A stretch of DNA of 64,000 nt from the sequence record DRR723986_10959, one strand, 5' to 3'. Under the pieces are notes generated by a model. The model saw nothing but the letters and a program-made list of their open reading frames with translations. It was not told the origin of the DNA and searched no databases. The translations under genes were made by a program, and so were the position numbers. Positions 205 through 42,796 of the stretch are shown here, piece after piece. Position 1 is the first letter of the stretch; the number at the start of each line of letters is the position of its first letter.

Positions 205-1197
205 ATGGCAATAAGAGTAGGAATAAACGGTTTCGGACGAATAGGCAGGTATTTTACAAGGATGGCCTTGAACAACAGCAATTTGCAGATTGTAGCAATC
301 AATGATTTAACAGATAATAAAACTCTTGCACATCTATTCAAATACGATTCTGTTCACCGCCAATTCAATGGTACTATTTCTACAACGGACTCTGAAATGA
401 TTTTGAATGGTCAGAAAATCAGTATGACCGCGGAGAGAGATCCAGAGAAAATTCCATGGAAAGACTTAAATGTTGACGTGGTATTAGAATCAACCGGAAT
501 TTTTAGAACAGAAGAATTGGCTTCAAAACACCTCAAAGCAGGAGCAAGAAAAGTCGTTTTATCCGCACCACCAAAGGATGGAGACATTAAATCAGTGGTT
601 CTTGGTGTAAATGATAATATCCTAGACGGAACAGAGAAGATCATCTCAAACGCCTCTTGCACAACTAACTCAGCCGCTCCTTTAGTAAAAGTGATGAAAT
701 CTTTAGGCAGCATAGAAAATGCCTACATTACGACTATCCACTCCTACACCTCTGATCAGAAACTGCATGATGCTCCCCATTCTGACTTAAGAAGAGCGAG
801 GGCAGCAGCAGAATCAATTGTCCCTACTACAACAGGAGCTGCAAAGGCTATTACCAAAATATTCCCTGAATTAGACGGACATATTGGAGGTTGCGGAATT
901 CGTGTACCAGTGCCTGACGGCTCGTTAACAGACATGACCTTCATAATGGATCATAATCTAACCGTTGAAGAAGTAAATGAGGCATTTAAGAAAGCCGCAG
1001 AAGGAGAATTAAAAGGAATTCTAAATTATATCACTGACCCAATAGTATCATCAGATATCATTGGTAGCCCCTATTCATCTACTTTTGATTCACAGCTAAC
1101 TTCAATTATAGGAAAAATGGTGAAAATAGTAGCTTGGTACGATAATGAAGCCGGATACTCGAACAGATGCGTTGATTTAATTGCAAAAATTGGATAG
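205..1197 (+). CDS. gap: Type I glyceraldehyde-3-phosphate dehydrogenase
   Basis: GINGFGRIGR Rossmann motif, NASCTTN catalytic Cys, WYDNE. Confidence 0.97.
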   Translation: MAIRVGINGFGRIGRYFTRMALNNSNLQIVAINDLTDNKTLAHLFKYDSVHRQFNGTISTTDSEMILNGQKISMTAERDPEKIPWKDLNVDVVLESTGIFRTEELASKHLKAGARKVVLSAPPKDGDIKSVVLGVNDNILDGTEKIISNASCTTNSAAPLVKVMKSLGSIENAYITTIHSYTSDQKLHDAPHSDLRRARAAAESIVPTTTGAAKAITKIFPELDGHIGGCGIRVPVPDGSLTDMTFIMDHNLTVEEVNEAFKKAAEGELKGILNYITDPIVSSDIIGSPYSSTFDSQLTSIIGKMVKIVAWYDNEAGYSNRCVDLIAKIG

Positions 1198-2307
1198 ATG
1201 ATAGCAAGACTTCTATACTATTCAAGCCACCCGCAAGAGGTTTCGTATTTGCTAAAAATGAAAAAAGAATTTAGCCAGTACAAACCGAGCGCAGAACGCT
1301 TAACTGAAATCTCAGGAAAAACGAGCGATAAGGAGTTTTGCTATGAAGCCCTTAAAAAAGTCTCTCGTTCTTTTGCTGTAGTTATTCAACAACTACCAAA
1401 AGAACTCCAAGATCCTGTTTGTTTATTCTATTTGATTTTAAGAGGATTAGATACCGTTGAAGACGATATGAGCATTGATCAAACCGAAAAAGAAAAAATG
1501 CTGATTTCTTTCGCTTCTAAAATCAATACTGAAAATTTCGTTTATCAAAACGTAGGAGACACTGTTGATTATCAAGATTTAATGCAACATTTTGACAAAG
1601 TTTGCAGAGAGTATAAAAAATTAGATTCCAACTATCAAAAAGTCATTACTGACATCACTGATCTTATGGCAGCCGGTATGAATAAGTATGCGCATACTGA
1701 AGTTGTAACTTACAAAGATTGGGACGACTATTGTCACTACGTGGCAGGATTAGTTGGTATAGGACTTAGTCAACTATTCATTAATTCTGGTTTAGAAAAA
1801 AGTGAATTATTGAAAGATCAATTTCTTTCAAACGAAATGGGACTTTTTCTACAAAAAACAAACATAATCAGAGACTTTGCGGAGGATCTAGATCAAGAAA
1901 GAGTGTTTTGGCCTGAAGAAGCCTGGAAAAATAGAGTTGCGGAATTAAAACAACTCCAAAAGCAACCTGAGAAAGGATTAGAGGTGCTGAATGAAATGAT
2001 TGTTAATGCAATTGAACACATTCCTAATTCATTAAAATATCTATCAGAATTAGAAAATATTCAAATTTTTAGATTCTGTGCAATCCCTCAATTGATGGCG
2101 GTTGCCACTTTAGCTGAACTATTCAATAACGAAGATGTTTTATACAAAAACGTTAAAATTAGGAAAGGTAAAACTGCTAAGTACTTCATGTCGATAAAAA
2201 GTTTTAAACAGACGAAAGCCGAATTCATTTCAGTACTTAAACCGTTGATAAACAAAGATGAATCAGGCAATATCAACAATATTCTTGAAAAAATAACGGA
2301 TGAATAA
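1198..2307 (+). CDS. sqs: Squalene synthase (farnesyl-diphosphate farnesyltransferase), eukaryote ERG9/FDFT1-like
   Basis: VSRSF flap, DTVEDD, YCHYVAGLVGIGL, MGLFLQKTNIIRD, FCAIPQ and VKIRKG are all conserved segments of eukaryotic SQS; no C-terminal TM anchor. Confidence 0.93.
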   Translation: MIARLLYYSSHPQEVSYLLKMKKEFSQYKPSAERLTEISGKTSDKEFCYEALKKVSRSFAVVIQQLPKELQDPVCLFYLILRGLDTVEDDMSIDQTEKEKMLISFASKINTENFVYQNVGDTVDYQDLMQHFDKVCREYKKLDSNYQKVITDITDLMAAGMNKYAHTEVVTYKDWDDYCHYVAGLVGIGLSQLFINSGLEKSELLKDQFLSNEMGLFLQKTNIIRDFAEDLDQERVFWPEEAWKNRVAELKQLQKQPEKGLEVLNEMIVNAIEHIPNSLKYLSELENIQIFRFCAIPQLMAVATLAELFNNEDVLYKNVKIRKGKTAKYFMSIKSFKQTKAEFISVLKPLINKDESGNINNILEKITDE

Positions 2308-3613
2308 GGATCAATACGATATCATTGTGGTAGGTGCAGGTGTCGCTGGTGGTGTATTCGCTCTATCCCAACCAAAACACCTAAAAATCCTTGTTGTAGA
2401 AAGAGATTTATCTGAACAAGAGCGTATCGTTGGAGAGTTAATGCAACCAGATGGATTAAGAGCATTAGCAGAAATGAATTTAGCGCATCTCACCGAAGGT
2501 ATTGATGCTCAAACAATTGAAGGTTATAAGTTGATTAAAAAAGATAAATCTTTTTGCATCAAATACGAAGAAATATCGAATGGCTTAAACGGAATCGGGT
2601 TGAGAAACGGCAAGTTTTTGAGCAAAATTCGAAAAGAATTATCCAGTTATGAAAACATTGATCTAGTAGAAGGAAATGTTATCGGATTAATCGAAGAAAA
2701 TAATCAAATCACTGGTATTCAATACACAAGTAACGACACTAATGTTAGTGTGAAATCACCTCTAACCGTTGTTTCTGATGGTCATGGTTCCTTGTTAAGA
2801 AGCAAATTAAGCAAACCCAACAAACAAGTAGAATCTTACTTTATGGGCCTTATTTTAGAAAATCTTGAACTGAAAGAACCTAGCCTCGGCCACATGATTG
2901 TTAGTGGTGACTCCCCTATCTTGGTTTACCCAATTAAGAGTAATTCCTACAGAATCTTAATTGACTATCCCGGTCAAAAACCACCAAGAATCGGCACTAA
3001 ATCCTTAGAGCAGTTCAAAACTGATGTAAGCAAACAACTCCCTGGGGAAATGGTAGATGCGTTCGTGAAGGCGCTTGAAGCTCAGCAAATTCAAGTAATG
3101 CCTAACCATAGGATGAAAGCCCAAGCCTTTAGAAAAAAAGGAGCTGTACTTCTTGGTGACTCTCTGAATATGAGACATCCTTTGACTGGAGGTGGGATGA
3201 CTGCAACCTTTAACGATATAATCACATTAAACAAAGTACTGAACTCAATTGATTTCTCAGATGAGAGTTTGACAGAAACAGCCATCAACCGTTACTACAA
3301 CACCAGAACACCGCAGGTTGAGACTATAAATATTCTTGCTAACGCCTTGTACAAGGTTTTTAGAGATGAAGACTTAAAAGATGCTTGTTTTGAATACTTA
3401 AATAAAGGAGGGGAAAAATCAACCGGTCCATTGTCAATTTTGGCTGGATTAAATAAAAACAAGAAATTTCTATTAAAACACTTTTTTAGGGTTGCCATTC
3501 AAAATCCTTTAAATTTTATTACGAAACCTAGAAAACAAATACGACTATATAAAAATGCTCTGGGAATAATCAAACCTTTATTGAAGGAAGAAGACCGCCC
3601 AGCAATGATATAA
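2300..3613 (+). CDS. sqe: Squalene epoxidase/monooxygenase (FAD-dependent), ERG1/SQLE-like
   Basis: VVGAGVAG, ERDLSEQERIVGELMQPDG, LLGDSLNMRHPLTGGGMT, INILANALY, HFFRVA. Confidence 0.93.
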   Translation: MNKDQYDIIVVGAGVAGGVFALSQPKHLKILVVERDLSEQERIVGELMQPDGLRALAEMNLAHLTEGIDAQTIEGYKLIKKDKSFCIKYEEISNGLNGIGLRNGKFLSKIRKELSSYENIDLVEGNVIGLIEENNQITGIQYTSNDTNVSVKSPLTVVSDGHGSLLRSKLSKPNKQVESYFMGLILENLELKEPSLGHMIVSGDSPILVYPIKSNSYRILIDYPGQKPPRIGTKSLEQFKTDVSKQLPGEMVDAFVKALEAQQIQVMPNHRMKAQAFRKKGAVLLGDSLNMRHPLTGGGMTATFNDIITLNKVLNSIDFSDESLTETAINRYYNTRTPQVETINILANALYKVFRDEDLKDACFEYLNKGGEKSTGPLSILAGLNKNKKFLLKHFFRVAIQNPLNFITKPRKQIRLYKNALGIIKPLLKEEDRPAMI

Positions 3614-4638
3614 TGGAAAATATTGAACACGAAACATTAAAAGACGCAGACGCAAGAAAACAAAGTCATCTCGACCTTGCTTTTCAGTCACAAAGCGCAG
3701 TACTTGACAAGCGATTCTATTACGAACCCATGCTGTCTGGACACCCTAAATTTGGGGAGAAAATGATCACTAAATGGGGTGAAAAGGAATTGGATTATCC
3801 TTTATGGATATCCAGCATGACAGGAGGCACTTCAAAAGCAGGACCAATCAATAAGATGCTTGCAAAAACCGCCAATAAATTCGGCTTAGGTATGGGACTT
3901 GGATCTTGTAGAATGATTATAGAAGACAATACTTATTTTGAAGACTTTAACCTACGTCCTATTCTTGGAGATAAAGTACCGTTCTATGCCAACGTGGGAA
4001 TTGCTCAAATTGAGAAATTACTCAATTTAAATCAAGCCAAGAAACTTACCGAACTCGTTAATAAATTAAGTGCTGACGGCCTAATTGTTCATGTCAACCC
4101 TTTACAAGAGTGGCTTCAACCTGAAGGTGATAGAATTGAACAATCTCCATTGGTGACCATTCAACAATTACTAAACGAGTTTGATAAACCAATTATCGTA
4201 AAAGAAGTAGGGCAAGGATTTGGACCAGCCAGCATGGGAGAATTGCTTAAACTTCCTTTACTAGCAGTAGATTTTGCTGCCAATGGCGGTACGAATTTTT
4301 CTAAACTTGAGTTAATTAGAAATAAAAAATTACAAAATCATTTTACTGATGTTGTATCTTTAGGACATAGCGCTGAAGAAATGGTAACATTTTTAAATGA
4401 TACCGTTGACAAACTAGGAGGCGCATTGAGATGCACGAACGTTATAATAAGTGGTGGTATCAAGAATTTTTTAGACGGCTACTACTGCATCAATAAATCA
4501 GATTTGAATTCAATTTACGGGCAAGCGGCACCTTTTTTAAAGTATGCCAATGAATCACAAGATGCACTAAACGAATTTGCAGAATTTCAAATCAACGGGC
4601 TACTAATGGCTCAAAGACTATTAAGAGTAAAGAAATGA
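3613..4638 (+). CDS. fni: Type 2 (FMN-dependent) isopentenyl-diphosphate delta-isomerase
   Basis: RKQSH, SSMTGG, HVNPLQE, VKEVGQG, GGTNF, SGGI. Confidence 0.92.
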   Translation: MENIEHETLKDADARKQSHLDLAFQSQSAVLDKRFYYEPMLSGHPKFGEKMITKWGEKELDYPLWISSMTGGTSKAGPINKMLAKTANKFGLGMGLGSCRMIIEDNTYFEDFNLRPILGDKVPFYANVGIAQIEKLLNLNQAKKLTELVNKLSADGLIVHVNPLQEWLQPEGDRIEQSPLVTIQQLLNEFDKPIIVKEVGQGFGPASMGELLKLPLLAVDFAANGGTNFSKLELIRNKKLQNHFTDVVSLGHSAEEMVTFLNDTVDKLGGALRCTNVIISGGIKNFLDGYYCINKSDLNSIYGQAAPFLKYANESQDALNEFAEFQINGLLMAQRLLRVKK

Positions 4639-5948
4639 ATAAATTAATAGAAGGATTTTCTAAAAAAAATAAAGAAGATAAAATTAAATCGATTGCGGCC
4701 TTTTTCAAGGACCCAGACGCAGCGGTTAACATATTTAAATCTTTCAATCATCCTGATGCTAAAATTCAGGAAATGATCAATGAATTCAGTGAAAACACTA
4801 TTTCAAATTTCCATTTACCCTACAGCATTGCCCCAAATTTTTTAATCAACGGAAAAACCAGGGCAATCCCAATGGTGATTGAAGAAAGTTCAGTGGTAGC
4901 AGCAGCTTCAAAGTCAGCTAAATTCTGGTATAACTTTGGAGGATTCAACGTAGAAGTAATTGATACTGAAAAGGTGGGTCAGGTGCATTTTCTTTGGAAT
5001 GATGACACTAGCTTATTGAAATCAAAATTCAACGAATTAAAAGCGCTTCTTATTTCAGGAACTGATGAGATAACCGAAAACATGAGAAATCGCGGTGGAG
5101 GTATCAAAGAAATCGTTTTAAAAGACTTATCAGACAAGGAACCTAACCTCATGCAGCTATACGCTACATTTGAGACAGTGGATTCTATGGGTGCAAATTT
5201 CGTAAATTCTTGTCTAGAGAAATTTGCGGATATTTTCAGAAGCTGGCACAAAGAGCAAGCTGAATTCAAAAATGATGGTTTGGAAATCATCATGTCAATT
5301 TTATCCAATTTAACACCTAATTGTATAGTTAAATGTTGGGTTGAAACAGATATTTCAAATTTAAAAGATATTGTTCCGGGAGTTTCAGGTGAAGAATTCG
5401 CTCGTAAATTCAGAACCGCAGTTCGAATTGCACAAGTTGACCCTTCAAGAGCAACGACACACAACAAAGGAATATACAATGGTGTTGATGCTGTGGTATT
5501 AGCTACCGGTAATGACTTTAGGGCTGTTGAAGCATGTGGTCATGCCTATGCCAGTATTAACGGATCTTACACTTCTCTCACAAATTGTGAAATTGAAAAT
5601 GGAAGGTTTAAGTTCACACTTACCCTACCCTTGGCACTCGGGGTTGTCGGTGGATTAACCAATTTACATCCCTTAGTAAAACTATCTCATGAGATTTTAG
5701 ATCACCCAACTGCGAAAGAATTAATGGGAATAGCCGCAGCTGCTGGTCTTGCAAATAATTTTGGCGCCGTAAAGTCTCTTACTACTACCGGAATTCAACA
5801 AGGTCATATGAAAATGCATCTTTTCAACATTATGAATCAGTTGGATGTTAAACCTGAAAGCAGAGATAAAGTTGTTGAGTATTTCAAAGAAAGAAATGTT
5901 TCTGTTTCGGCAGTAAGAAAATACGTTGAAGAATCAGAAATAGCTTAA
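4635..5948 (+). CDS. mvaA: Class II HMG-CoA reductase
   Basis: ENTIS, EESSVVAA, DSMGAN, THNKGIYNG, GNDFRA, GIQQGHMKMH. Confidence 0.94.
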   Translation: MNKLIEGFSKKNKEDKIKSIAAFFKDPDAAVNIFKSFNHPDAKIQEMINEFSENTISNFHLPYSIAPNFLINGKTRAIPMVIEESSVVAAASKSAKFWYNFGGFNVEVIDTEKVGQVHFLWNDDTSLLKSKFNELKALLISGTDEITENMRNRGGGIKEIVLKDLSDKEPNLMQLYATFETVDSMGANFVNSCLEKFADIFRSWHKEQAEFKNDGLEIIMSILSNLTPNCIVKCWVETDISNLKDIVPGVSGEEFARKFRTAVRIAQVDPSRATTHNKGIYNGVDAVVLATGNDFRAVEACGHAYASINGSYTSLTNCEIENGRFKFTLTLPLALGVVGGLTNLHPLVKLSHEILDHPTAKELMGIAAAAGLANNFGAVKSLTTTGIQQGHMKMHLFNIMNQLDVKPESRDKVVEYFKERNVSVSAVRKYVEESEIA

Positions 5949-6847
5949 TGACAGCTACCTTGTTAAATTTCGAAGCATCTTGTAAATTGATGCTTTTCGG
6001 CGAATACCTAGTTCTTGAAGGTGCTAAATCTTTAGCTTTTCCTTTAAAATTTGGGCAATCCCTCCAAATTGAGCCTTCAAGAGAAATTAGATGGACCAGC
6101 GAATCACCTGATGGTATTTGGTTCACTGCAGATTTCGATTCAACATTAAACATTATCAACACAAACAATGAAGAGGTCGCAAACATTTTAGCCAAACTCT
6201 TGAAGCTAATAAAATCATTAAAGCCCGACCTCAACATTAACAATGTTTTTCATGCTCAAGCTGACTTTAATCTTGCCTGGGGATTGGGTTCTAGTTCAAC
6301 TCTTATAAGCTTATTAAGTCAATGGTCTAAAATAGACCCTTTTCTATTGTTATCTGAATCTTTTGGAGGCTCTGGATATGACATTGCCTGTGCGACTGCC
6401 AAACGGCCGATCATCTTTCAAAAATCAGCTAATAAAAACAGTTGGAAAGAGATATCATTAAATCAAAACGTTACCGATCATTTTTTGTTTATTTATCTAG
6501 GTCAAAAACAAAATTCGAGAAGTGAAATTCAGAGATTTAAAAAGTCTAAAGTAAATTCAGCGCACATAAATGAAATGAATAATCTTGTAGATCAGTCGAT
6601 TAACTGTGAAAACATTGAAGAATTCGAAAGCTTATTGAATCAATCTGAAGAATTATTATCTCCAATAATTGGGAAGCAGAAACTAAAAGAACATATCTTT
6701 GCTGACTACGAATACAGCATCAAGTCTTTGGGTGCTTGGGGAGGAGATTTTTTTCTCGCCACCCATAGAAACATTGACGAAGCAAAGAAATATTTTACGA
6801 ACAGAGGCTTAACCACCATGTTCACTTATAAAGAAATGGTTAAATAA
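5948..6847 (+). CDS. GYDIA-type GHMP kinase, probable phosphomevalonate kinase
   Basis: KLMLFGEY, WGLGSSST, GGSGYDIACA, KSLGAWGGDF; position after HMGR in a mevalonate cluster. Substrate assignment is inferred. Confidence 0.75.
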   Translation: MTATLLNFEASCKLMLFGEYLVLEGAKSLAFPLKFGQSLQIEPSREIRWTSESPDGIWFTADFDSTLNIINTNNEEVANILAKLLKLIKSLKPDLNINNVFHAQADFNLAWGLGSSSTLISLLSQWSKIDPFLLLSESFGGSGYDIACATAKRPIIFQKSANKNSWKEISLNQNVTDHFLFIYLGQKQNSRSEIQRFKKSKVNSAHINEMNNLVDQSINCENIEEFESLLNQSEELLSPIIGKQKLKEHIFADYEYSIKSLGAWGGDFFLATHRNIDEAKKYFTNRGLTTMFTYKEMVK

Positions 6848-6848
6848 A

Positions 6849-7904
6849 ATGGAAAACACTACTCAGTCTAATACGATAACAAAAGTAAAATGGCGTTGTC
6901 CATCAAACATTGCAATTGTAAAATATTGGGGAAAAAAACCTATTCAAATACCTTGCAACTCATCTTTAAGCTTAACATTATCTAACTCTTATACCGAAGT
7001 AGAAGCTGAGCTAACGGAGAAAACTACCGATCAAAAGGTTGAGATGACTTATTATTTTGAAGGTGAGATTTCTGATTTATTTGGCAGAAAAGTAGCAAAG
7101 TATCTAGAAGACAACATAGAGTCCTTTCCATTTTTAAATGATTACGCGGTAACTATGCGATCAATGAATAGCTTTCCACATTCAGCTGGAATTGCATCTT
7201 CAGCTTCGGCATTTGGCGCTATTGCTCTTGCAATGCTCGACTTTTCTTATGCCTTTGCGAATAAAGAAAGAAATGACTCCTTCTTTCAAGAGGCATCTAA
7301 CTTAGCAAGGTTAGGATCTGGATCAGCTTGTAGAAGCATCTTCCCTTCTTATGCCATGTGGGGAGAAAATGACCAAATAGAAAACAGTTCGAACGAGAAG
7401 GCCATTGAGGTTACCGACATTCATCCGAACTTTCAAAATATGAAAGACGCTATTTTGATTGTAGAAGATGAACCTAAAAAAGTATCCAGTACTATTGGTC
7501 ACGGATTAATGAATAACCACCCCTATGCAGAAGCAAGATTTAATCAAGCAAACGAAAGAACTGCTAAACTTGTAGAGATACTTAAATCTGGTGATATTGA
7601 GTCATTTATACAGCTTAGCGAAAGCGAAGCTTTAACTCTTCACGCTATGATGATGACCTCTTCAGAATACTATTTATTGGTTAAACCAGGCACCATTCAA
7701 GCTATTGAGAAATTAATGCAATTTAGATTAGAATGTTTAGTTCCGGTTTGTTTCACATTGGACGCAGGCCCTAACCTACATGTTTTATATCCTGCTAAAT
7801 ATGCTGAAAAAGTGGAAGATTTTATCAACAATGAATTGACCGATACTTATAAGAAAGTTATCTTTGACCACGAAGGAAATGGCCCTACGAAATTGGAGGC
7901 CTAG
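6849..7904 (+). CDS. mvaD: Diphosphomevalonate decarboxylase
   Basis: PSNIAIVKYWGK, NSFPHSAGIASSAS, ARLGSGSACRS, FTLDAGPNLH. Confidence 0.92.
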   Translation: MENTTQSNTITKVKWRCPSNIAIVKYWGKKPIQIPCNSSLSLTLSNSYTEVEAELTEKTTDQKVEMTYYFEGEISDLFGRKVAKYLEDNIESFPFLNDYAVTMRSMNSFPHSAGIASSASAFGAIALAMLDFSYAFANKERNDSFFQEASNLARLGSGSACRSIFPSYAMWGENDQIENSSNEKAIEVTDIHPNFQNMKDAILIVEDEPKKVSSTIGHGLMNNHPYAEARFNQANERTAKLVEILKSGDIESFIQLSESEALTLHAMMMTSSEYYLLVKPGTIQAIEKLMQFRLECLVPVCFTLDAGPNLHVLYPAKYAEKVEDFINNELTDTYKKVIFDHEGNGPTKLEA

Positions 7905-7907
7905 GAA

Positions 7908-8849
7908 ATGGAAAAGTTCACATCAAAAGTTCTGATATTTGGCGAGTACAGCCTGCTTTACAACAGCATGGCACTCACTATGCCATACGATAAATTTTCA
8001 GGACAATTCGCCTTTACTGATCTAGAACATGACAACCAAAGTGCAAAACTCTCAAACAAAGGCTTAAGGCAACTGTGTTCACACATGCTTGAGAACCATA
8101 CAGATGAGACCTTTAAACTTAATGTCAATAAGTTTAAATCTGAACTAGATAAAGGCCTGTTTTTTGAAAGCAACATTCCTCAAGGTTTCGGGCTAGGAAG
8201 CTCTGGTGCCCTAGTTGCAGCGATATTCTTGAGATACTTAGAGAAAGCAGGTGATTTTAAAGATGGTTTAAAACATTTAACTAAAGAGAAGATTTGCTCT
8301 CTAAAAAGTTGTCTTGGTGGTTTAGAAGGCTATTTCCATGGAACAAGTTCAGGTATTGACCCTTTAAGCATTTTAATTAATCAACCGCTTTTACTGAAGT
8401 CTGCAACAGATATTTCTACAGTAGAAGTTCCAACTTATAATCCCAGCGGAAAACATGTTGTATTCCTTTTAAATACAAGACTTGCTAGAAATACCGACAA
8501 ATTAGTTGATCAATTCAAGGAAGCTTGTAAACGTCCTGAATTTAAAACTAAGCTTGAAAATGATCTTATTCAATTCACGAATGGTGGTATCAACAGTTTT
8601 TTAAGCTCTAATACAGAAGGACTATACAAAAACCTAGACAATTTGGTAAAATTTCAATTAAACGAAATGAATTACCTGATTCCTGAATCTTATCAGACCC
8701 TAGTTAAAAACGGGCTAGATTCTGGAAATTATTTCTTAAAAATTTGTGGATCTGGTGGCGGAGGATATATGCTCGGATTCACTAAGGAATGGGACAAAAC
8801 AAAAAAAGAATTAGAAAAAGAGGATATTGAAATCCTTTATAGATACTAA
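7908..8849 (+). CDS. mvk: Mevalonate kinase (GHMP family)
   Basis: KVLIFGEYS, SNIPQGFGLGSSGA, HGTSSGIDP, KICGSGGGG. Confidence 0.85.
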   Translation: MEKFTSKVLIFGEYSLLYNSMALTMPYDKFSGQFAFTDLEHDNQSAKLSNKGLRQLCSHMLENHTDETFKLNVNKFKSELDKGLFFESNIPQGFGLGSSGALVAAIFLRYLEKAGDFKDGLKHLTKEKICSLKSCLGGLEGYFHGTSSGIDPLSILINQPLLLKSATDISTVEVPTYNPSGKHVVFLLNTRLARNTDKLVDQFKEACKRPEFKTKLENDLIQFTNGGINSFLSSNTEGLYKNLDNLVKFQLNEMNYLIPESYQTLVKNGLDSGNYFLKICGSGGGGYMLGFTKEWDKTKKELEKEDIEILYRY

Positions 8850-8851
8850 AT

Positions 8852-9829
8852 ATGAGTGAAGTTACTACCGAACTAAGTGCGCAAAAAGTCGCAATTGAAC
8901 ATTTTTTAGAAACCAAGGCCTTGGAGAGCTTTCCTTCTAACCTATTTGATGCCGTACATCATATAATGACTCTAGACGGCAAAAGACTACGACCTATGAT
9001 GACATTGATGTCAGCGAAAGGTTTTGGTGTAAGTGAAGAAAAAGCAATGTCTGCCGCTATTTCAATAGAGGTCTTTCACAATTTTACTTTAGTTCATGAC
9101 GACATCATGGATAAAGCGAAATTGAGAAGAGGAAAAATCACAGTTCATGAAAAATTTGGTGTTGACAAAGCCATAGTTACCGGTGACGCCATGTTGCCAC
9201 ACGCTGTAAGCTTATTGATTCAAGATCATCCGGATAAAGCGGGCGATTTATTGAATTGTTTCAACAAGATGGCAAAAGAGGTAATGGAAGGCCAACAATA
9301 CGATATGGAGTTCGAAGACCGTACTGATGTTGCTGTTCAGGAATACATGAACATGATTAAACTAAAAACTTCGGTCTTATTTGGTACAGCATGTGAAATT
9401 GGAGCAATTTTAGGAGGAGCATCCAACGAAGATCGCGAAAAACTTTACGACTTTGGCTTATACGCTGGCCTGGCATTCCAAATAATGGATGACTATTTGG
9501 ATACATTTGGAGATGAAAACTTCGGTAAACGTATTGGCGGTGACATCTTGCTGAATAAAAAAACCTTCTTATTGGTAAATGCGCTTCAAACAGCTTCAAC
9601 AGAGCAAAAATCACGCATCTTCACATTATTTGAAGAGAAAGATGAGGAAAAGAAAATTGCTGCTTTTCAAGATCTATATCGAGAATTGAACATTCCTCAA
9701 ATTGCCCTGGATACAATGGAAGAACTTCATAAAAAATCTGTAAACGCAGTTATGTCTTCTTCTATTCCTTCTGAGGATAAAGAAAGAATCAATCAGTTGG
9801 GCGAAATTATGTTGAGACGTAAAAAGTAA
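8852..9829 (+). CDS. Short-chain trans-prenyl diphosphate synthase (FPP/GGPP)
   Basis: GKRLRP, first Asp-rich motif FTLVHDDIMD with Phe at -5, RRG, GQQYD, KTS, second motif FQIMDDYLD. Confidence 0.92.
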   Translation: MSEVTTELSAQKVAIEHFLETKALESFPSNLFDAVHHIMTLDGKRLRPMMTLMSAKGFGVSEEKAMSAAISIEVFHNFTLVHDDIMDKAKLRRGKITVHEKFGVDKAIVTGDAMLPHAVSLLIQDHPDKAGDLLNCFNKMAKEVMEGQQYDMEFEDRTDVAVQEYMNMIKLKTSVLFGTACEIGAILGGASNEDREKLYDFGLYAGLAFQIMDDYLDTFGDENFGKRIGGDILLNKKTFLLVNALQTASTEQKSRIFTLFEEKDEEKKIAAFQDLYRELNIPQIALDTMEELHKKSVNAVMSSSIPSEDKERINQLGEIMLRRKK

Positions 9830-9831
9830 AC

Positions 9832-12084
9832 ATGAATTTCGCAGAGAAGGATCAAGCATATTTCTGGAACTGCTGGAAGTTTACTTCTAACAACGGACAA
9901 CAGCGTTGGCATTTTGAGATTCCTTCGGAATTAAAAAACCACGTCAAATCACATGAAGACTGGAAAAAGCCTGAAGCTCAGAACTTTCTAGAGCATTTTG
10001 ATAAGGCATTTATATTTGATAAAAAGATTAACCCTAACTCAGCAGACAAGGTTTTTAGATTTATCAGAGCTCAACACAGACCAGTAAGCAACATAAAACC
10101 CATAGCTGAGACGGATGATTTAAAATCTCAAACTCGAACTACCCTACTAAACGGTTTTCGTTTTTACGAAACTCTTCAAGAACCAGACGGAAACTGGGCG
10201 GGAGACTACGGAGGGCCATTGTTTTTAATTCCAGGACTTGTAATCGCTTCCTACATCACGGAAACTCCTTTTGAGATACCCATGCAGGTGCTCATGAAAA
10301 GGAATTTGTGGAATCATCAGAATGAAGACGGCGGATGGGGATTGCACATTGAAGGGCACTCAACCATGTTTGGGACGGTTATGCAATATGTTACCCTTAG
10401 AATTTTAGGAGAAAGTCTTGAAAATCCTGACATGCAAAGGGCACAACAATGGATAATTGATCACGGTGGTGCAATCAAGATTCCACAATGGGGTAAATTC
10501 TATTTGTCAGTATTGAACGTTTATGAATGGGAAGGAAATGATGCTTTGCTGCCTGAAATGTGGAAGTTCCCGAGATGGGTTCCTTTTCATCCTGGAAAAT
10601 ATTGGTGTCATAATCGAATGATATTTTTACCCATGTCCTATTGTTTTGGGAATAAAATCAAAGCGAAAGAAACTGATTTAATTAAAGATTTAAGAAAGGA
10701 ACTATACAATACTGATTACAAAACCATTAACTGGAAGAAAGCAGGAAGAGAAGCATGCGAAATAGACATCTTTCATCCGGTTAATAAATGGTATTACAGG
10801 TTAAGCTGGTTCACCAATACTTATGAGAAAATCTTTTCAAAAAGATGGCGAAAGAAAGCACTCAAATATGTAGCTGATTATATTGACCACGAGGACATTC
10901 ATACCCGCTATATCAATATTGGCCCTGTAAACCAGGCCATTAATTCTATTGCGGTGTGGCATCTTCACGGTAAGGAGTCAGAGCAATTTCAACAACATGT
11001 TTATCGTTGGCAAGATTATCTTTGGATAGCTGAAGACGGAGCGAAAATGGGAGGATATAACGGCTCACAGCTGTGGGACACTTCCTTTGCTGGCCAGGCA
11101 TTACTCGAAGCGGATATGGAATCCGATTTTCCAGAAATGGCTCAAAAAATTTATTCTTTCATTGAATTAACTCAAATTGATCGTGATCCAGTAGAGCACA
11201 AAAAGTATTGGAGAGATGTGACTAAAGGAACCTGGCCTTTTTCAACAATTGATCACGCTTGGGCCGTTACAGATTGCACCAGTGAAGGAATGAAGACCGC
11301 ACTACTCTACAATAACAAACCAAACATTCCAAAGATTAAAGAAGTTGACCTAGATCGACTTAAACCAGCAATTGACTGGCTACTTTTTATGCAGAATGAT
11401 GATGGTGGATGGGCTTCCTACGAGAGAAAAAGGGCACCACAGTGGATTGAAGTACTAAATCCTGCTATGTTATTTGAAAATATCATGGTCGAAGTAACCT
11501 ACACTGAATGCTCTTCAGCAACTATGCAAGGACTGAAGGAATTTAGCTTAAACCATGATTACCGAAAGGCCGATATAGAGAAAGCGCTGGAAAAAGGCAC
11601 CTCATTTATAAAAGGAAAACAAAGAGAAGACGGCTCTTGGTACGGCTGTTGGGGAGTTTGTTTCACCTACGGCATATGGTTCGGAATAGAAGGATTGCTG
11701 TGCGGTGGAATGCAAGGATTTGAAAATGGAGCAGCAGCCAAGGAAATTAGTGCTGCTTGTGATTTTTTATTGTCTAAACAAAACGAAGATGGTAGTTGGG
11801 GCGAATCATTCGAATCTTGTGTTCAGCATAAATACATTCAGCACGAAGATGGCCAAATCATCAACACAGCCTGGGCCTTACTAGGATTAATGAAGGCAAA
11901 GCACCCCAATAGGGCAGCAATTGAAAAAGGAATTCAATTCCTAATATCTAGACAAGAAGACAACGGAGATTTTCCACAGGAGGGCATTTCAGGCGTTTTT
12001 AACGGCAATTGTATGGAAACCTATACATCATACAGGAACGTGTTCCCTTTATGGGCGCTAGCCCGATATTATAAACACTATTAA
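9832..12084 (+). CDS. osc: 2,3-oxidosqualene cyclase (sterol-type)
   Basis: Catalytic DCTSE (11272-11286) rather than DxDD; DYGGPLF, WCHNR, GYNGSQLWDT; several QW repeats (QNEDGGWG, QREDGSWYG, QNEDGSWGE); GVFN...YTSYRNVFPLWAL. Confidence 0.96.
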   Translation: MNFAEKDQAYFWNCWKFTSNNGQQRWHFEIPSELKNHVKSHEDWKKPEAQNFLEHFDKAFIFDKKINPNSADKVFRFIRAQHRPVSNIKPIAETDDLKSQTRTTLLNGFRFYETLQEPDGNWAGDYGGPLFLIPGLVIASYITETPFEIPMQVLMKRNLWNHQNEDGGWGLHIEGHSTMFGTVMQYVTLRILGESLENPDMQRAQQWIIDHGGAIKIPQWGKFYLSVLNVYEWEGNDALLPEMWKFPRWVPFHPGKYWCHNRMIFLPMSYCFGNKIKAKETDLIKDLRKELYNTDYKTINWKKAGREACEIDIFHPVNKWYYRLSWFTNTYEKIFSKRWRKKALKYVADYIDHEDIHTRYINIGPVNQAINSIAVWHLHGKESEQFQQHVYRWQDYLWIAEDGAKMGGYNGSQLWDTSFAGQALLEADMESDFPEMAQKIYSFIELTQIDRDPVEHKKYWRDVTKGTWPFSTIDHAWAVTDCTSEGMKTALLYNNKPNIPKIKEVDLDRLKPAIDWLLFMQNDDGGWASYERKRAPQWIEVLNPAMLFENIMVEVTYTECSSATMQGLKEFSLNHDYRKADIEKALEKGTSFIKGKQREDGSWYGCWGVCFTYGIWFGIEGLLCGGMQGFENGAAAKEISAACDFLLSKQNEDGSWGESFESCVQHKYIQHEDGQIINTAWALLGLMKAKHPNRAAIEKGIQFLISRQEDNGDFPQEGISGVFNGNCMETYTSYRNVFPLWALARYYKHY

Positions 12085-12123
12085 TGTAATTTGATTATCA
12101 GCATTTGTTATCTTTAAGATGTA

Positions 12124-14175
12124 ATGCTGAAAAAACTACATCTCATTGGCTTAATTCTGAGCCTTTCTGTACTTTCATTTGCAAATGAAAAAAGTGATGC
12201 AATCAAGCTTGCAGAAAAAGGAAGAGACTCCATCAACAGCAATCCTGAAATCGCAAAAAAATACTTCGAGCAGGCCGCCATTTACTTTGATAACTCAGTT
12301 CCATCAAGGGATAAGATTAATTACCTAGAATGGCGAGCTCTTGCCTATTCTTCTACCGGAAATTGTGGAATAGCAAGCAATCACTTTGATGAAGCAATTA
12401 GCATTGCCGTTCAGCTTCATGATTACAAAAAAGCCATCAGCATCTATTCGGTAAAGGTTATCAGGTGCATATTAGATTTAGGAGGTGATTTGCAAGAATC
12501 GTTGCAAATTGCACTAAGAGTAAAAGAAAAAACAGCTAATAGTGAAGATGCTGAATTTAAATTTCTAGCAAACAGACTTTTAATCAACGTTTATTGGGAT
12601 CAGCCAGAATTTAGCGAAGAATTTGTGAATTTAGCAATTGAAAATCATGAACTCTCTCTAGAAACGGATAATAAAGAATTGCAAACCCAAGCCACATTCC
12701 ACCTAGCCTATGCGTACACTGAGGTGCAGAAATTTGACCTTGCAATTCTTAACTATCAAAATGTTATTAAATATCAACGTAGCTTAAATGATCATGCGGT
12801 TTCGGCTAGTTATAACAATCTAGGGTCCATATACGCTAGGATCAATGAATATGATAGTGCCCTGCACTACTTTAGCCTAGCTGAACATCACGCCGTATTA
12901 GAAAACCGGCCAGGTGGTGTTGCCGCCGCAAATCTATATAAAAGTGCGGTTTACAAAGATTTGAAGCAGTTCGAATCAACATTAGAAGCGTGTCAGAAAG
13001 CGCTAGAAATCTTTAGGGCAAACGGCATTCTAAGACGACAAGAATTATGCGCAACCTGTATTACCGAAGCTTATGAAGCCTTAGGTGATAAATCTCAAGC
13101 ATACGAAGCTTTTCGATTTGAACTTGAAATAAAAGATTCGTTAAAAAAATTATCGGGACAGGACGAAATGTTAATTGTTCAAAATCAATTCAAAGCGGAA
13201 TCAAAGGCCCTAAAAGACAGTTTAAATTATGTTTATCAAGATGAAATCAATCAAACGAAAATTGCTGAACAAAAAAACCGAACAATTTATTTAATTATTG
13301 GCTTGGTTTTATCTGTATTGTTTGGTGGTTTTATCCTCAACCGCTTCAGAATAACACGAAGACAAAAGGCCATTATTGAATTGCAAAAAGTGGAAGTTGC
13401 TAGACAGCACGCAGAATTGCAAGAAACCCATAAAGAAATAACAGACTCAATAACTTATGCGAAGAGAATTCAGAATGCCATTTTGCCTTCCCAAAAAATC
13501 ATAAACCAATTACTCCCAAATAGCTTTGTGCTGTACCTTCCGAAAGATGTTGTTGCAGGTGATTTCTATTGGATGAATCAAACACCTACAGGAATTTTGT
13601 TTGCTGCCGCAGACTGTACCGGACATGGTGTCCCTGGAGCAATGGTGTCAGTTGTTTGTAACAACGCGTTAAACAGATCTGTTCGAGAATTCGGACTGCA
13701 TGAACCCGCCAAAATCCTTGATAAAACTCGTGAAATAGTGGTAAATGAATTCCAGAAATCGGATAAAGATGTCAAAGATGGGATGGATATTGCACTCTGT
13801 CATCTATCAGGGAATTCCCTTCAATTTGCAGGAGCACATAACCCGCTTTGGATAATAAGATCTGGTGAAATCATTGAAATCAAAGCTGACAAACAACCTA
13901 TCGGCTCATTTGACAAAGCATCACCTTTTACTCCACATTCAATTAACTTAGAATCTGGAGACTTCGTTTATATTTTCTCTGATGGCTATGTCGATCAATT
14001 TGGCGGAGACAGAGGTAAAAAACTAAAGGCCAAGAATATGCGTACTATTTTTCAAAAGGCTGCTCAATTGGAGGTCGAAGAGCAATCACAGTTTCTAGAA
14101 ACTGAATTTTTAAAATGGAAAGCAGATTATGAACAAATAGATGATGTTTGCGTGATCGGAACCAAGATCCTTTAA
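12124..14175 (+). CDS. Membrane sensor with periplasmic TPR repeats and cytoplasmic SpoIIE/PP2C phosphatase domain
   Basis: Signal peptide, TPR-like SYNNLGSIY, one TM helix, then PKDVVAGDFY, ADCTGHGVPGA, DGMD, FSDGYVDQFGG, QIDDV. Confidence 0.88.
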   Translation: MLKKLHLIGLILSLSVLSFANEKSDAIKLAEKGRDSINSNPEIAKKYFEQAAIYFDNSVPSRDKINYLEWRALAYSSTGNCGIASNHFDEAISIAVQLHDYKKAISIYSVKVIRCILDLGGDLQESLQIALRVKEKTANSEDAEFKFLANRLLINVYWDQPEFSEEFVNLAIENHELSLETDNKELQTQATFHLAYAYTEVQKFDLAILNYQNVIKYQRSLNDHAVSASYNNLGSIYARINEYDSALHYFSLAEHHAVLENRPGGVAAANLYKSAVYKDLKQFESTLEACQKALEIFRANGILRRQELCATCITEAYEALGDKSQAYEAFRFELEIKDSLKKLSGQDEMLIVQNQFKAESKALKDSLNYVYQDEINQTKIAEQKNRTIYLIIGLVLSVLFGGFILNRFRITRRQKAIIELQKVEVARQHAELQETHKEITDSITYAKRIQNAILPSQKIINQLLPNSFVLYLPKDVVAGDFYWMNQTPTGILFAAADCTGHGVPGAMVSVVCNNALNRSVREFGLHEPAKILDKTREIVVNEFQKSDKDVKDGMDIALCHLSGNSLQFAGAHNPLWIIRSGEIIEIKADKQPIGSFDKASPFTPHSINLESGDFVYIFSDGYVDQFGGDRGKKLKAKNMRTIFQKAAQLEVEEQSQFLETEFLKWKADYEQIDDVCVIGTKIL

Positions 14176-14217
14176 CTTAATAATTCAAATCATTCCTAAT
14201 AAACGGTATCGATTTAA

Positions 14218-14225
14218 TATATTTG
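14218..14225 (+). promoter_or_regulatory. -7 promoter element
   Basis: TATATTTG (TAnnTTTG), about 20 bp before ATG 14247. Confidence 0.5.
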
Positions 14226-14246
14226 TGGGCCTTAAAATAGTTGATC

Positions 14247-16088
14247 ATGGTTCAAAATAAATTACGAGAATATCTTCAAAATGCCCTAGAAAATTTACCG
14301 AATGATTGGATTAGGCTAACTACTCACAGACTAGATATTTACAACGAAAGTTTAGCGAAAACTCAATTTTTAGAACAATTCGAAAAGTTGTTTTCTTCGA
14401 ATCAATACAGTCAAGATGACTTAGCAAAACTTCCAACTGCCTTTGATTACATTCGTTTAGGGCATCCCCTCTCTTGTTTATTAGAATGGACTATTGCAAA
14501 ATCAAATGATGTGCCTGCCGATAACATCATCAGTTTTACATCTTGCACTGCACCAATTTTGGCCGTGCTTAGAAAAAATGCTTTAAGCAATGTCAACACA
14601 CGTATTTGTTTTACGGATAACCTGCCAGAAGCATTTGATACTAACACAATAAGTGCTATTTACGAATACCAATTTGAGTTAGCTAAAATTCAAAACCTCG
14701 GTGACCTTCAAGAATTTAACGGGAGCACCATCTTTGTTAGTAACGCGCATGACATAGTAGAAATTGAAACAAACGATTTAGTAGATTTTCATATCAATAT
14801 CCTACCTGAATTAGGAAGTATCATTTCTGTAAACGGACAAAAAAATCAAACATATATTTCGGAAATTCAGCACGTTAGAAGAAGAGAAACAATAGCAATG
14901 ACTCCTGCTAACTGCCTTATAGCACTGAATAGAATTGTTGGAAATTCAGAGAATCAGTCTTCAGGTAATACCGAAATCAACCGTAAAAAGGTTGTGGACG
15001 CTATTAATGAAATATGCGGTACACACTCTAAAGCACTGGTTGCATCAAGCGGTTTGTCGATCCAATACGCCATTTTAATGGGACTTGTTGAACATGCCGT
15101 TCATAATCACCCTGGCAAGGCTATCAAAATTATTGTACCGCCAAATTGCTATGGCGGAACAAACGATCAAGCCAGAAGAGTTGCAGCATGTCTTGACAAT
15201 GTTGAAATTGTTGACTTTCCAGTAGATGCGGGCAATGATATGGTTCAAAGTATTGAATCAATTTTAACTCAAACAGCTCAAGATGATGCTGTACCATTTA
15301 TCATTGCCGAAATCCCTACCAATCCGAGAGTGGAGGTTCCTGACTTAACTAATTTGAGAGATGCTTTAAGTAAGCCGCGACAAAGCCCAAATGGAACAAC
15401 AGCCATTGATCCAGTATTTATTTTAGACCAAACATTTTGTCCAAATGTTCACTTTTTAGGTGATCAAGATATACTTTCAACGGTAAGAACCATCTCATTT
15501 GCAAGTGGCTCTAAATTCCCATCAGGCGGAAAATGTACAGCAGGTTACTGCGTAGCTAATTCAAAAGCCGAAAATTTGATGGTAAGCATTCAAAAACACC
15601 TCAAAGTGTGTGACAATGAAGCTACTGCATTACAACTCGAAATTCTTGCCGAACAGTTATCCTCAATGAACGAGAGAATTGCTAAAGCCTATGCCAATAC
15701 CCGAGAGTTTGTCTCTTTCATTGAACAAGAATTGCCTGAAGCCAAAATAAACTTTGTATCTGAAGAGTTAGCTGCCCAAGGCTTTACTCCTTCTGTATTC
15801 TCATTAGATCTTCCAACTAAAGGAAATACAGATGAAGAAAGAGAAAATTATAAACGCGCACTGAATCTTAAACTCATCAACATGATGATTTCTGAAATTC
15901 CGAATGAGAGCAAGTATTGCGTTAGTTACGGGCAATTAAAAGGTTGCTACTGGACAATTCCTGCAACCTCAACTCAAGGCACAACCAAAGAAGGCGATAA
16001 AGACTACATTGCAAGAGTAGCCTTATCTGCCAACATGGATTTGCAAAAGCATAAAGAGGTTTTCGCCAAATTTGTTGAGCAACTCTAA
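14247..16088 (+). CDS. Extended Cys/Met metabolism PLP-dependent enzyme (cystathionine gamma-synthase/beta-lyase family)
   Basis: DYIRLGHP, ASSGLS, CYGGT, EIPTNP, LDQTF, SGSKF (PLP Lys), VSYG; ATG 14247 preferred over TTG 14241. Confidence 0.8.
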   Translation: MVQNKLREYLQNALENLPNDWIRLTTHRLDIYNESLAKTQFLEQFEKLFSSNQYSQDDLAKLPTAFDYIRLGHPLSCLLEWTIAKSNDVPADNIISFTSCTAPILAVLRKNALSNVNTRICFTDNLPEAFDTNTISAIYEYQFELAKIQNLGDLQEFNGSTIFVSNAHDIVEIETNDLVDFHINILPELGSIISVNGQKNQTYISEIQHVRRRETIAMTPANCLIALNRIVGNSENQSSGNTEINRKKVVDAINEICGTHSKALVASSGLSIQYAILMGLVEHAVHNHPGKAIKIIVPPNCYGGTNDQARRVAACLDNVEIVDFPVDAGNDMVQSIESILTQTAQDDAVPFIIAEIPTNPRVEVPDLTNLRDALSKPRQSPNGTTAIDPVFILDQTFCPNVHFLGDQDILSTVRTISFASGSKFPSGGKCTAGYCVANSKAENLMVSIQKHLKVCDNEATALQLEILAEQLSSMNERIAKAYANTREFVSFIEQELPEAKINFVSEELAAQGFTPSVFSLDLPTKGNTDEERENYKRALNLKLINMMISEIPNESKYCVSYGQLKGCYWTIPATSTQGTTKEGDKDYIARVALSANMDLQKHKEVFAKFVEQL

Positions 16089-42789: not shown

Positions 42790-42796
42790 TTCAAAA

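Follow-up and report, generated by a model that had tools for sequence, protein, structure and literature searches.

Whether a single bacterial gene block can carry the whole route from HMG-CoA to a cyclised sterol, and what the mevalonate (MVA) genes inside such a block supply, are the questions raised by a 64-kb stretch of DNA (the window) from an uncultured freshwater/marine-type flavobacterium, a Crocinitomicaceae MAG. Exactly ten ORFs, all on the + strand, were listed within positions 205–12084, encoding in order GAPDH, squalene synthase, squalene epoxidase, IDI-2, class II HMG-CoA reductase, a GHMP kinase, mevalonate-PP decarboxylase, a second GHMP kinase, a short-chain prenyl synthase, and an oxidosqualene cyclase (OSC). 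The genes abutted at 0 bp (gap/sqs), overlapped by 8 bp (sqs/sqe), 1 bp (sqe/idi2, TAATG), 4 bp (idi2/hmgr, ATGA), and 1 bp (hmgr/GYDIA kinase, TAATG), or were separated by gaps of 1, 3, 2, and 2 bp (GYDIA kinase/mvd, mvd/mvk, mvk/ids, and ids/osc). A preliminary description had given these ten same-strand genes and all nine junction sizes, and they matched the ORF coordinates and the printed junction strings. As the N-termini and spacing were kept in relatives, the start codons are not artefacts of ORF calling. We conclude, with a probability of about 0.78, that the block is a sterol locus orthologous to the Fluviicola taffensis locus, with the route from HMG-CoA to a protosterol.

The first three genes (all coordinates are on the + strand) were assigned by profile searches. 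The gap gene (205–1197) encodes a type I glyceraldehyde-3-phosphate dehydrogenase (TIGR01534, 418.8 bits; cut-off 367.2). The sqs product (1198–2307) scored 390.6 bits against TIGR01559 (cut-off 286.75), compared to 54.8 for HpnD, 42.4 for HpnC, and about 30–37 for CrtB, indicating a eukaryote-type squalene synthase. The sqe gene (2300–3613; PF08491, 258.5 bits, cut-off 20.1) is predicted to encode a squalene epoxidase (SQMO), with an FAD-binding fold (PF01494, 40.2 bits) beside the SE domain.

The next five genes make up a complete lower mevalonate part, comprising HMGR, two kinases, MVD, and IDI. The class II HMG-CoA reductase gene, hmgr (4635–5948), scored 283.7 against PF00368 and 274.3 against TIGR00532 (cut-off 259.95), and HMGR was found as one copy, located in the cluster, in each of five genomes (G001–G005). 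The type 2 IPP isomerase gene, idi2 (3613–4638), gave a full-length match to TIGR02151 (183.6 bits, E 4.5e-54; cut-off 281.3) and no Pfam match at E 0.001. The diphosphomevalonate decarboxylase gene, mvd (6849–7904), matched PF22700 (116.4, cut-off 27) and PF18376, and scored just below the cut-off of TIGR01240 (159.9 against 171.35). The mvk-like GHMP kinase gene (7908–8849), a presumed mevalonate kinase, reached 86.9 bits with TIGR00549 (cut-off 163.05), and it matched the mevalonate kinase 2x7i in the PDB (E 2.8e-9). The NCBIfam scores of IDI-2, MVD, and MVK were thus sub-threshold, with E values of 1.6e-24 or better. The GYDIA-family GHMP kinase (5948–6847; NF040656, 310 bits, cut-off 225) had just remote PDB matches, to mevalonate kinases, and is presumed by elimination to be the phosphomevalonate kinase.

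The ids gene (8852–9829) encodes a short-chain prenyl diphosphate synthase (PF00348, 238 bits; cut-off 27), the third such paralog in the genome. In FPP synthases, aromatic residues occupy both positions −5 and −4 ahead of the initial DDxxD (eukaryotic type), or else there is an IspA-type DDxxxxD. The ids motif was F78-T79-L-V-H-D83-D-I-M-D, with F-T-L-V-H before DDIMD, and the scores were low against FPPsyn NF045485 (165.2 bits, cut-off 275) and IspA PRK10581 (113, cut-off 321). Among solved structures, its best relatives were 6kd7 (280 bits), the GGPPS 5jfq (186.6), and 1wy0 (169.6), compared to about 94–115 for FPPS entries. The label "FPP synthase" in the preliminary description was therefore not upheld, since ids is GGPP-synthase-like by sequence and not IspA; it may nevertheless release FPP.

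The last gene, osc (9832–12084), scored 648.5 bits against TIGR01787 (cut-off 322.7) and 621.2 against TIGR03463 osq_cycl (cut-off 851). Its product aligned over 644 residues with human lanosterol synthase 1W6K (696.8 bits, E 3e-208), compared to 121 bits for SHC, indicating a full-length match to OSC over SHC. The catalytic Asp motif, V479-T-D481-C-T-S-E, aligned with human V453-S-D455-C-T-A-E in place of the SHC DxDD, and its D and C were retained in all 84 rows of the OSC alignment.

In the proposed route, HMGR would reduce HMG-CoA to mevalonate, the two GHMP kinases would phosphorylate it twice, MVD would yield IPP, and IDI-2 would isomerise it. The GGPPS-like enzyme would condense the units to FPP, SQS would form squalene, SQE would epoxidise it with O2, and OSC would cyclise oxidosqualene to a 4,4,14-trimethyl protosterol, without further processing. 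The proposal of a continuous HMG-CoA-to-sterol unit stood in that a candidate gene was found for every step to the cyclised protosterol; it needed amendment at ids and at gap, which belongs to the unit in this genus only. From the gene content, we infer that this organism produces sterols.

When the gene order was compared among relatives, sqs-sqe-idi2-hmgr-gydia-mvd-mvk-ids-osc was found on one strand in 16 of 16 loci with an OSC identity of at least 73% and a full 10-kb upstream flank. Four loci on shorter contigs agreed as far as they extended, and the remaining 59 of the 80 loci (OSC identity at most 59%) had other arrangements. The nine-gene order was kept in at least four genera, and its isolates included Taishania pollutisoli and Fluviicola chungangensis. 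The preliminary description had left novelty to be checked and had named a shared order in relatives as its refutation, and this is what was found: the locus stands but is no novelty, because public Fluviicola and Taishania genomes and many MAGs share the order, one relative being a proven cycloartenol producer. The gap gene preceded sqs only in the genus of the window (loci L004, L007, L010, and L098), whereas the Fluviicola and Taishania loci did not have it upstream and its ortholog sat elsewhere in genomes G002–G004.

Two observations missed by the preliminary description, MEP genes and no recognisable HMG-CoA synthase (HMGS), change the meaning of the operon. The MEP genes dxs, dxr, and ispH were over cut-off in all five genomes, so that the cell has a further precursor line in its mevalonate genes. 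In the family, OSC was found in 20 of 151 genomes, all with HMGR and Dxr; that is, in 20/23 genomes carrying both Dxr and HMGR and in 0/128 others, although the 20 belong to six genera and are kin, not independent cases. In the OSC genomes of genus g4, HMGR belonged to another lineage and lay in a distinct operon, indicating that the pairing of MVA and OSC arose more than once. We tentatively propose, at somewhat less than even confidence, that the Crocinitomicaceae MVA module is a dedicated sterol precursor line beside a housekeeping MEP pathway, drawing on HMG-CoA made without HMGS (for example, by leucine breakdown). That the line would mainly feed the sterol branch is the most likely course, at about even odds.

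It is also quite conceivable, if doubtful, that the MVA genes provide isoprenoids redundantly and for general use, having been inherited with a family module, the nesting being historical and implying no channelling to sterol. The core idi2-hmgr-gydia-mvd-mvk indeed stood alone in OSC-less family genomes (loci L086–L094), and 11 OSC-less family genomes depend on the core since they lack Dxr. A MAG of the same genus (G123, 76% complete) carried gap-idi2-hmgr-gydia without sqs-sqe, with no OSC or SQE found, and two genomes (G033 and G099) had both pathways and no OSC. However, a merely redundant supply fits poorly with the confinement of OSC to genomes with both pathways, with the recurrence of this association across two lineages of HMGR and three different gene arrangements, and with the nesting of MVA genes inside sterol genes over four genera.

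Transcription of the block would begin at a Bacteroidota-type promoter 5ʹ of gap and continue through osc, with translation coupled via overlapping stops and starts. The terminator and TAnnTTTG element of the preliminary description were both located: an intrinsic-terminator-like hairpin with a T run at the end of the upstream unit (1–36, + strand; 12-pair stem at 1–28), and TAGTTTTG (182–189, + strand), 16 nt before the gap ATG, which we take to be the −7 promoter element of Bacteroidota consensus type. TAnnTTTG kept a constant distance from the gap ATG in all five genus-level upstream regions while the remaining spacer diverged, yet the motif is weak on its own, with 37 matches on the + strand over 64 kb (0.58 per kb). 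A hairpin search of the window found no terminator-like site between genes of the block, whose tight packing leaves no space for one. In the metatranscriptome run X1, two contigs (3346–6339, 27 differences; 6393–10005, 20 differences) spanned seven of the nine junctions; they are assembled, unstranded, without ends, and may include DNA carry-over, and a contig over several genes is not a single transcript. The gap/sqs and sqs/sqe junctions were unbridged. From the near-zero spacing, the lack of terminators, the conserved motif, and the contigs, we regard one transcript for gap–osc as probable.

It is unlikely, though far from negligible, that the block consists of several units, with gap read from its own promoter with minor terminatorless read-through and sqs, perhaps also mvk, from internal promoters. 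TAnnTTTG matches occurred at 1080 (118 nt before sqs) and 7859 (49 nt before mvk), but at the density above such matches are expected by chance. As gap is not upstream in Fluviicola and Taishania, sqs must own its promoter there, and the RNA contigs spanned neither of the first two junctions, although missing cover is not evidence. Against separate units stand precisely these junctions, abutting at gap/sqs and overlapping at sqs/sqe, and the terminator-free block.

HMG-CoA synthase was found in none of the five genomes, whether the query was TIGR01835, PF08540, or an HMGS protein from Flavobacteriales; the weak matches, considered as HMGS, were FabH, scoring about 400 bits as such. An HMG-CoA-lyase-like gene occurred in all five (189–200 bits, below the cut-off of 246). 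The HMG-CoA source would not be a canonical HMG-CoA synthase; leucine breakdown is a guess. That the pathway is not self-sufficient, its mevalonate genes being idle or limited to scavenged mevalonate, would fit the missing HMGS but is very improbable: all genes are intact and conserved, the lyase-like gene is universal in the five genomes, and 21 of 28 HMGR-bearing genomes in a Flavobacteriales sample were also without HMGS (PF08540, PF01154, and protein query). Of these, 17 also lacked Dxr (nine in family f3, seven in f4, and one in f15), so an HMGS-less route must suffice in them.

The product of the cyclase was considered from its active site. The triad Y409/H475/V479 occupies human positions 381/449/453, and the rule for cycloartenol is Y381/H449/I453 (PMC4919349); two of the three sites are thus cycloartenol-type and the third is lanosterol-type. 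Val occupied the 453 equivalent in the window and 18 rows, and Ile in five (L018, L031, L032, L112, and L113). By the single-residue rule described in PMC4919349, Val would predict lanosterol rather than cycloartenol; because the cycloartenol-type Tyr and His are kept, cycloartenol is the main product that we expect, and lanosterol or parkeol may accompany it. A non-sterol pentacyclic product of arborinol type, like that reported for the Eudoraea OSC homolog, is very improbable: sequence cannot fix an OSC product with certainty and an arborane synthase is cited among Bacteroidetes OSC homologs (PMC7306690), but the window OSC is 73–76% identical to Fluviicola OSCs, F. taffensis makes cycloartenol, and the Eudoraea and F. 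taffensis cyclases do not group with each other (PMC4919349). No downstream sterol genes were found in the 64-kb window, and the lone P450 of G001 and G005, considered as a sterol demethylase, was not CYP51-like.

The nearest known system is F. taffensis, of the same family, for which cycloartenol was described as the only product, with SQMO Fluta_3221 and OSC Fluta_3214 (Wei, Yin, and Welander 2016, PMC4919349). As in the window, downstream sterol genes are missing, and the two tags lie seven apart; besides OSC identity, the nine-gene order is common to named Fluviicola and Taishania records, and the genus-specific joining of gap to the front is a difference. The accessible text of that paper names only SQMO and OSC and lacks the words "mevalonate" and "operon"; the link of an additional mevalonate pathway to sterol genes appears to have been little noticed so far. 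The sqmo-osc pairs of Methylococcales, Gemmata, and myxobacteria resemble the window in clustering epoxidase and cyclase and in a protosterol as first product. They differ in arrangement, which is either osc-sqe or a divergent sqe-sqs/osc and includes no mevalonate genes (L064–L083), and in cyclase triads of Y/N/V or Y/Q/V versus Y/H/V, and they often carry C-4/C-14 demethylation genes (PMC7306690).

The mevalonate core resembles the Flavobacteriales operon, for which the MVK and PMVK of Flavobacterium johnsoniae have been identified (Hayakawa et al. 2017, as cited in PMC6107057). The idi2-hmgr-GHMP-mvd-GHMP order is the same, with divergent kinases and HMGR 52–68% identical, but there the operon is the sole isoprenoid pathway (Dxr in 0/15 genomes of f3 and 0/8 of f4), whereas our organism has it alongside MEP and embedded among sterol genes. 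MEP-using Streptomyces carry mevalonate clusters, including HMG-CoA synthase, beside terpenoid antibiotic genes. Our block, which comes from another phylum and has another product and class of HMGR, likewise places a second precursor supply next to its user genes. The eukaryote-like combination of SQS, SQMO, and OSC with mevalonate genes in one bacterium also occurs in myxobacteria and Dadabacteria, the only steroid producers with MVA according to the main text of Hoshino and Gaucher 2021 (PMC8237579); compared to these two groups, Crocinitomicaceae are a third case, with the genes in one physical block.

Crocinitomicaceae occur widely in metagenomes of water, biofilm, and biofloc, mostly at small shares. 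Bacterial protosterol makers are an alternative source of cycloartane/lanostane-type molecular fossils otherwise ascribed to early eukaryotes. As close cyclases divide into Val and Ile types, the single-residue product rule could be tested on natural variants, and the HMGS-less mevalonate pathway poses a biochemical question testable in cultured Fluviicola strains. An MVA-plus-sterol block in Bacteroidota bears on arguments that use the MVA-sterol pairing to name the bacteria from which eukaryotes received sterol synthesis (PMC8237579). If the dedicated-line reading is true, the family would be a third bacterial MVA-sterol lineage besides the two of that paper's main text, the block would form a cassette, compact and transferable, leading from HMG-CoA to protosterol, its cyclases would make up a natural Ile-to-Val series at the site that decides the product, and the split between MVA for sterol and MEP would resemble that of plants.

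The ORF listing of the window gave ten plus-strand ORFs between positions 205 and 12084, and their coordinates bore out the preliminary description of ten tightly packed genes on the same strand, including the junctions, which comprise a 0-bp junction, an 8-bp overlap, overlaps of 1, 4, and 1 bp, and gaps of 1, 3, 2, and 2 bp. The plus-strand genes are, in order, gap (type I GAPDH), sqs (squalene synthase), sqe (squalene epoxidase), idi2 (type 2 IPP isomerase), hmgr (class II HMG-CoA reductase), gydia (GYDIA-family GHMP kinase), mvd (diphosphomevalonate decarboxylase), mvk (mevalonate-kinase-like GHMP kinase), ids (polyprenyl synthase), and osc (oxidosqualene cyclase, OSC), which ends at 12084. 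The products of gap, sqs, hmgr, gydia, and osc passed curated cut-offs, and those of idi2 (E 4.5e-54), mvd (E 7.1e-47), and mvk (E 1.6e-24) were full-length matches below the NCBIfam cut-offs. For both GHMP kinases, PDB searches returned remote mevalonate kinase matches only. The terminator reported at the start of the window was present as a hairpin at 1–28 with a T run, and the terminator scan of the window found no terminator-like site at any junction within the ten-gene block. The TAnnTTTG element was likewise found at 182–189 (TAGTTTTG). As this motif has 37 plus-strand matches in the window (0.58 per kb), one match means little; its distance to the start of gap was constant in all five upstream regions of the window's genus, and the remaining spacer was not conserved. 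The ten genes and their packing are real.

For the synteny analysis of OSC neighbourhoods, one genome per species was scanned with a cyclase alignment, 80 loci were kept, and the ten proteins were mapped by tblastn. The nine-gene order sqs-sqe-idi2-hmgr-gydia-mvd-mvk-ids-osc was found on one strand in all 16 loci with a cyclase identity of at least 73% and a full upstream flank, and four shorter contigs showed the same order as far as they extend. Loci with this order include those of Taishania pollutisoli CZZ-1 and Fluviicola chungangensis MAH-3. The gene order, for which novelty had been considered, is already contained in public genomes of relatives, and the window locus is therefore a further example of a known locus. 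The other 59 loci (cyclase identity of at most 59%) were arranged differently: in most Bacteroidota among them, sqe-sqs is divergent from osc, at times with hmgr-gydia or ids-mvk-mvd nearby, and the Methylococcales loci have osc-sqe, unlike the order in the window. Only in the window's genus does gap stand in front of the block (L004, L007, L010, and L098), and three other genomes have the orthologous gap elsewhere.

A full Crocinitomicaceae-type operon (L018, CP034120.1:2217250-2239490) is also present in a complete genome recorded as Glaciecola amylolytica (Alteromonadaceae). Its cyclase is 74% identical to that of the window, and its reductase is nested within Fluviicola in a quick HMGR tree; the name and the content of this record do not seem to match.

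The predicted route from HMG-CoA to a protosterol is sound, judged by homology to a proven producer. According to Wei et al. 2016 (PMC4919349), cycloartenol is the sole sterol of Fluviicola taffensis, and its squalene epoxidase (Fluta_3221) and OSC (Fluta_3214) are seven locus tags apart, which is the spacing in the window; the words "mevalonate" and "operon" do not occur in that article. Santana-Molina et al. 2020 (PMC7306690) present a 10-kb synteny figure, and Hoshino and Gaucher 2021 (PMC8237579) state that the majority of bacteria that produce steroids rely on the MEP pathway, with the mevalonate (MVA) pathway only in myxobacteria and Dadabacteria. In the literature searched, we found no published description of a merged operon (mevalonate and sterol genes in one block) or of dual pathways in Crocinitomicaceae.

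Of the sampled words, 60% occur in the metatranscriptome run X1. Two X1 contigs, which match the window at about 99% identity, cover 3346–6339 and 6393–10005 and thus bridge seven of the nine gene junctions; no contig of run X21 was placed on the window. The X1 contigs were assembled from an RNA library, carry no information on strand or transcript ends, and may contain DNA carry-over, and a contig that covers several genes does not prove a single transcript. By per-contig figures, in which holes prove nothing, X1 depth was about 8–26 over 2.2–9.9 kb, near 0 over 11.5–12.6 kb, and absent over 1–2200, and the DNA runs X2 and X3 had a flat depth of 3–6 where covered. These depths are therefore no evidence on where the 3ʹ end lies, on how strongly the genes are expressed relative to one another, or on carry-over of DNA. 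A habitat inference from the run list was dropped, as most shares were 0.05–0.22.

The metagenome-assembled genome (MAG) G001, 93% complete, matches window positions 4290–16088 at 99%; its contig breaks off within idi2, which leaves the gap, sqs, and sqe of this MAG unassembled. The closest named cyclases belong to Crocinitomicaceae MAGs, Paracrocinitomix, and Fluviicola. Outside the operon, the window resembles a typical stretch of Bacteroidota chromosome, encoding housekeeping proteins and type IX secretion substrates, and the remainder of its 64 kb contains no gene for sterol modification. Right after osc, across a 39-bp spacer in which no terminator was found, lies a gene for a TPR and SpoIIE-type phosphatase (12124–14175, plus strand); the C-terminal half of its product belongs to a large paralog family, with 30 or more additional matches in G001. 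This phosphatase and a PLP enzyme were rejected as operon members because they lie 3ʹ of osc in G001 only. At L004, a 55% SpoIIE match is located 1.5 kb further on, and none of six more distal window genes was found in the flank of any relative. A 320-aa protein of the ecdysteroid-kinase-like/APH phosphotransferase family (PF02958, 58.4 bits) is encoded at 17745–18707 on the minus strand, opposite to the cyclase gene and 5.7 kb downstream of it; since the gene is absent from every relative's flank, a sterol link is unlikely. Further along, a split transketolase occupies 40580–43750 (plus strand), with a gene for a 455-aa von Willebrand A domain protein between its N-terminal (40580–41422) and C-terminal (42797–43750) halves.

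The ids product had been labelled an FPP synthase, which the comparisons did not support. It scored below both FPPS model cut-offs (165 against 275 bits and 113 against 321 bits), and its top scores came from GGPPS-like models, all below cut-off. Among solved structures, 6kd7 (280 bits) and two GGPP synthases matched best and FPP synthases scored much lower, and the residues F-T-L-V-H precede DDIMD. The enzyme may still release FPP.

In an alignment to human lanosterol synthase, the residues of the window cyclase at 381, 449, and 453 are Tyr, His, and Val, and the catalytic Asp is present. Wei et al. (PMC4919349) state that, in every strain they tested, cycloartenol was associated with Ile453 and lanosterol with Val453, and an older three-site rule quoted there takes Tyr with His as cycloartenol-type. 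Among the 84 rows of the cyclase alignment, which include some duplicate contigs, the triads were Y/H/I (46), Y/H/V (18), Y/N/V (16), Y/Q/V (3), and Y/Q/I (1). Y/H/V is the triad of the window and its closest relatives; five loci with the same operon, L018, L031, L032, L112, and L113, have Ile at 453. In a plant cycloartenol synthase, an Ile-to-Val change gave a mixture in which cycloartenol predominated. Because of this precedent and the three-site rule, and despite Val453, the product is predicted, with low certainty, to be mainly cycloartenol, with lanosterol or parkeol.

A P450 gene (322 bits) was observed at L109 (G005:C3:196540-200802), and G001 contains a partial copy (L110). The closest solved structures are CYP170-like, followed by the cholesterol 24-hydroxylase CYP46A1; an identity as CYP51 was rejected, as the matches were to CYP170-, CYP46A1-, and BM3-like structures and not to CYP51. 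It is preceded by a gene for an AMP-binding enzyme, and a gene of the fatty-acid-hydroxylase/sterol-desaturase family (250 aa) lies facing it. Such a locus occurs in two genomes of the window's genus and is absent from G003 and G004. A lipid or a carotenoid may be the substrate of the P450, or conceivably the protosterol.

In G001 and its relatives G002–G005, the MEP genes dxs, dxr, and ispH were each above the curated cut-off in all five genomes. Each genome has one HMGR, which is the cluster copy, and three polyprenyl synthases, one of them in the cluster. When the same 151 family genomes were searched for OSC, HMGR, and Dxr, OSC was found in 20 (across 6 of 29 genera), HMGR in 34, and Dxr in 137. 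All 20 OSC genomes had both HMGR and Dxr, and OSC was present in 20 of the 23 family genomes with both; kin among these genomes are not independent, and the counts are given without a statistical test. No OSC was found in the 114 MEP-only, the 11 MVA-only, or the three neither-pathway genomes (74%, 78%, and 92% complete).

This pairing occurs in three arrangements, namely merged, merged without idi2 (L095), and in separate operons in the genus g4 (L096, L097, and L130). In the quick HMGR tree, read at its starred forks with SH-aLRT support only, the reductases of the merged operons group together in one clade (98), and the family's MVA-only reductases form a separate clade (97). The g4 reductases are placed in the opposite half, among other families. 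As the merged-operon and g4 reductases are separate, sterol genes have been paired with two reductase lineages.

A locus in family f12 (L122, G260:C78:160500-180499) carries hmgr-gydia-mvd-mvk, and its reductase is 75% identical to that of the window and nested within the window's genus in the quick tree. The genome also has HMG-CoA synthase (HMGS) and a sub-threshold Dxr. Transfer or a binning error is possible.

Several genomes speak against a mevalonate line dedicated to sterols. G033 and G099 have both pathways and no OSC, and the same core mevalonate module is the sole pathway in 11 family genomes. In G123, a 76% complete MAG of the window's genus, the order is gap-idi2-hmgr-gydia (L131, G123:C138:1-8991); only 35 bp separate gap from idi2, so sqs-sqe is absent there, and searches of this MAG detected no SQE and no OSC. 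Since its reductase is nested inside the merged clade (95) of the quick tree, a loss of the sterol genes is suggested, and G123 looks like a natural sterol-less variant.

Searches of G001–G005 with TIGR01835, with PF08540, and with a genuine Flavobacteriales HMGS protein (from L100) detected no HMGS, and weak matches were rejected because they are FabH. In an order-level control sample of 121 genomes, 28 had HMGR, and among these HMGS was detected (PF08540, PF01154, and a protein query) in only 7 and undetected in 21 (order-level sample G157–G261). Dxr was found in 0 of 15 genomes of family f3 and 0 of 8 of f4. As 17 genomes (nine f3, seven f4, and one f15) have HMGR with neither Dxr nor detectable HMGS, we infer that some non-HMGS source of HMG-CoA must work in Flavobacteriales. 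These counts are at odds with PMC4026382, which states that flavobacteria have all MVA enzymes except PMK and whose supporting table is a supplement. An HMG-CoA-lyase-like gene, below cut-off, was present in all five genomes (G001–G005); it adjoins pyrD and has no liu neighbours, a position that supports neither side on a leucine route to HMG-CoA.

Points of interest are the GGPPS-like prenyl synthase, the cyclase with Val at 453, and the genus-specific gap fusion. Interest is also added to the locus by the absent HMGS and by an extra mevalonate line, in a MEP-bearing genome, that is tied to OSC across the family.
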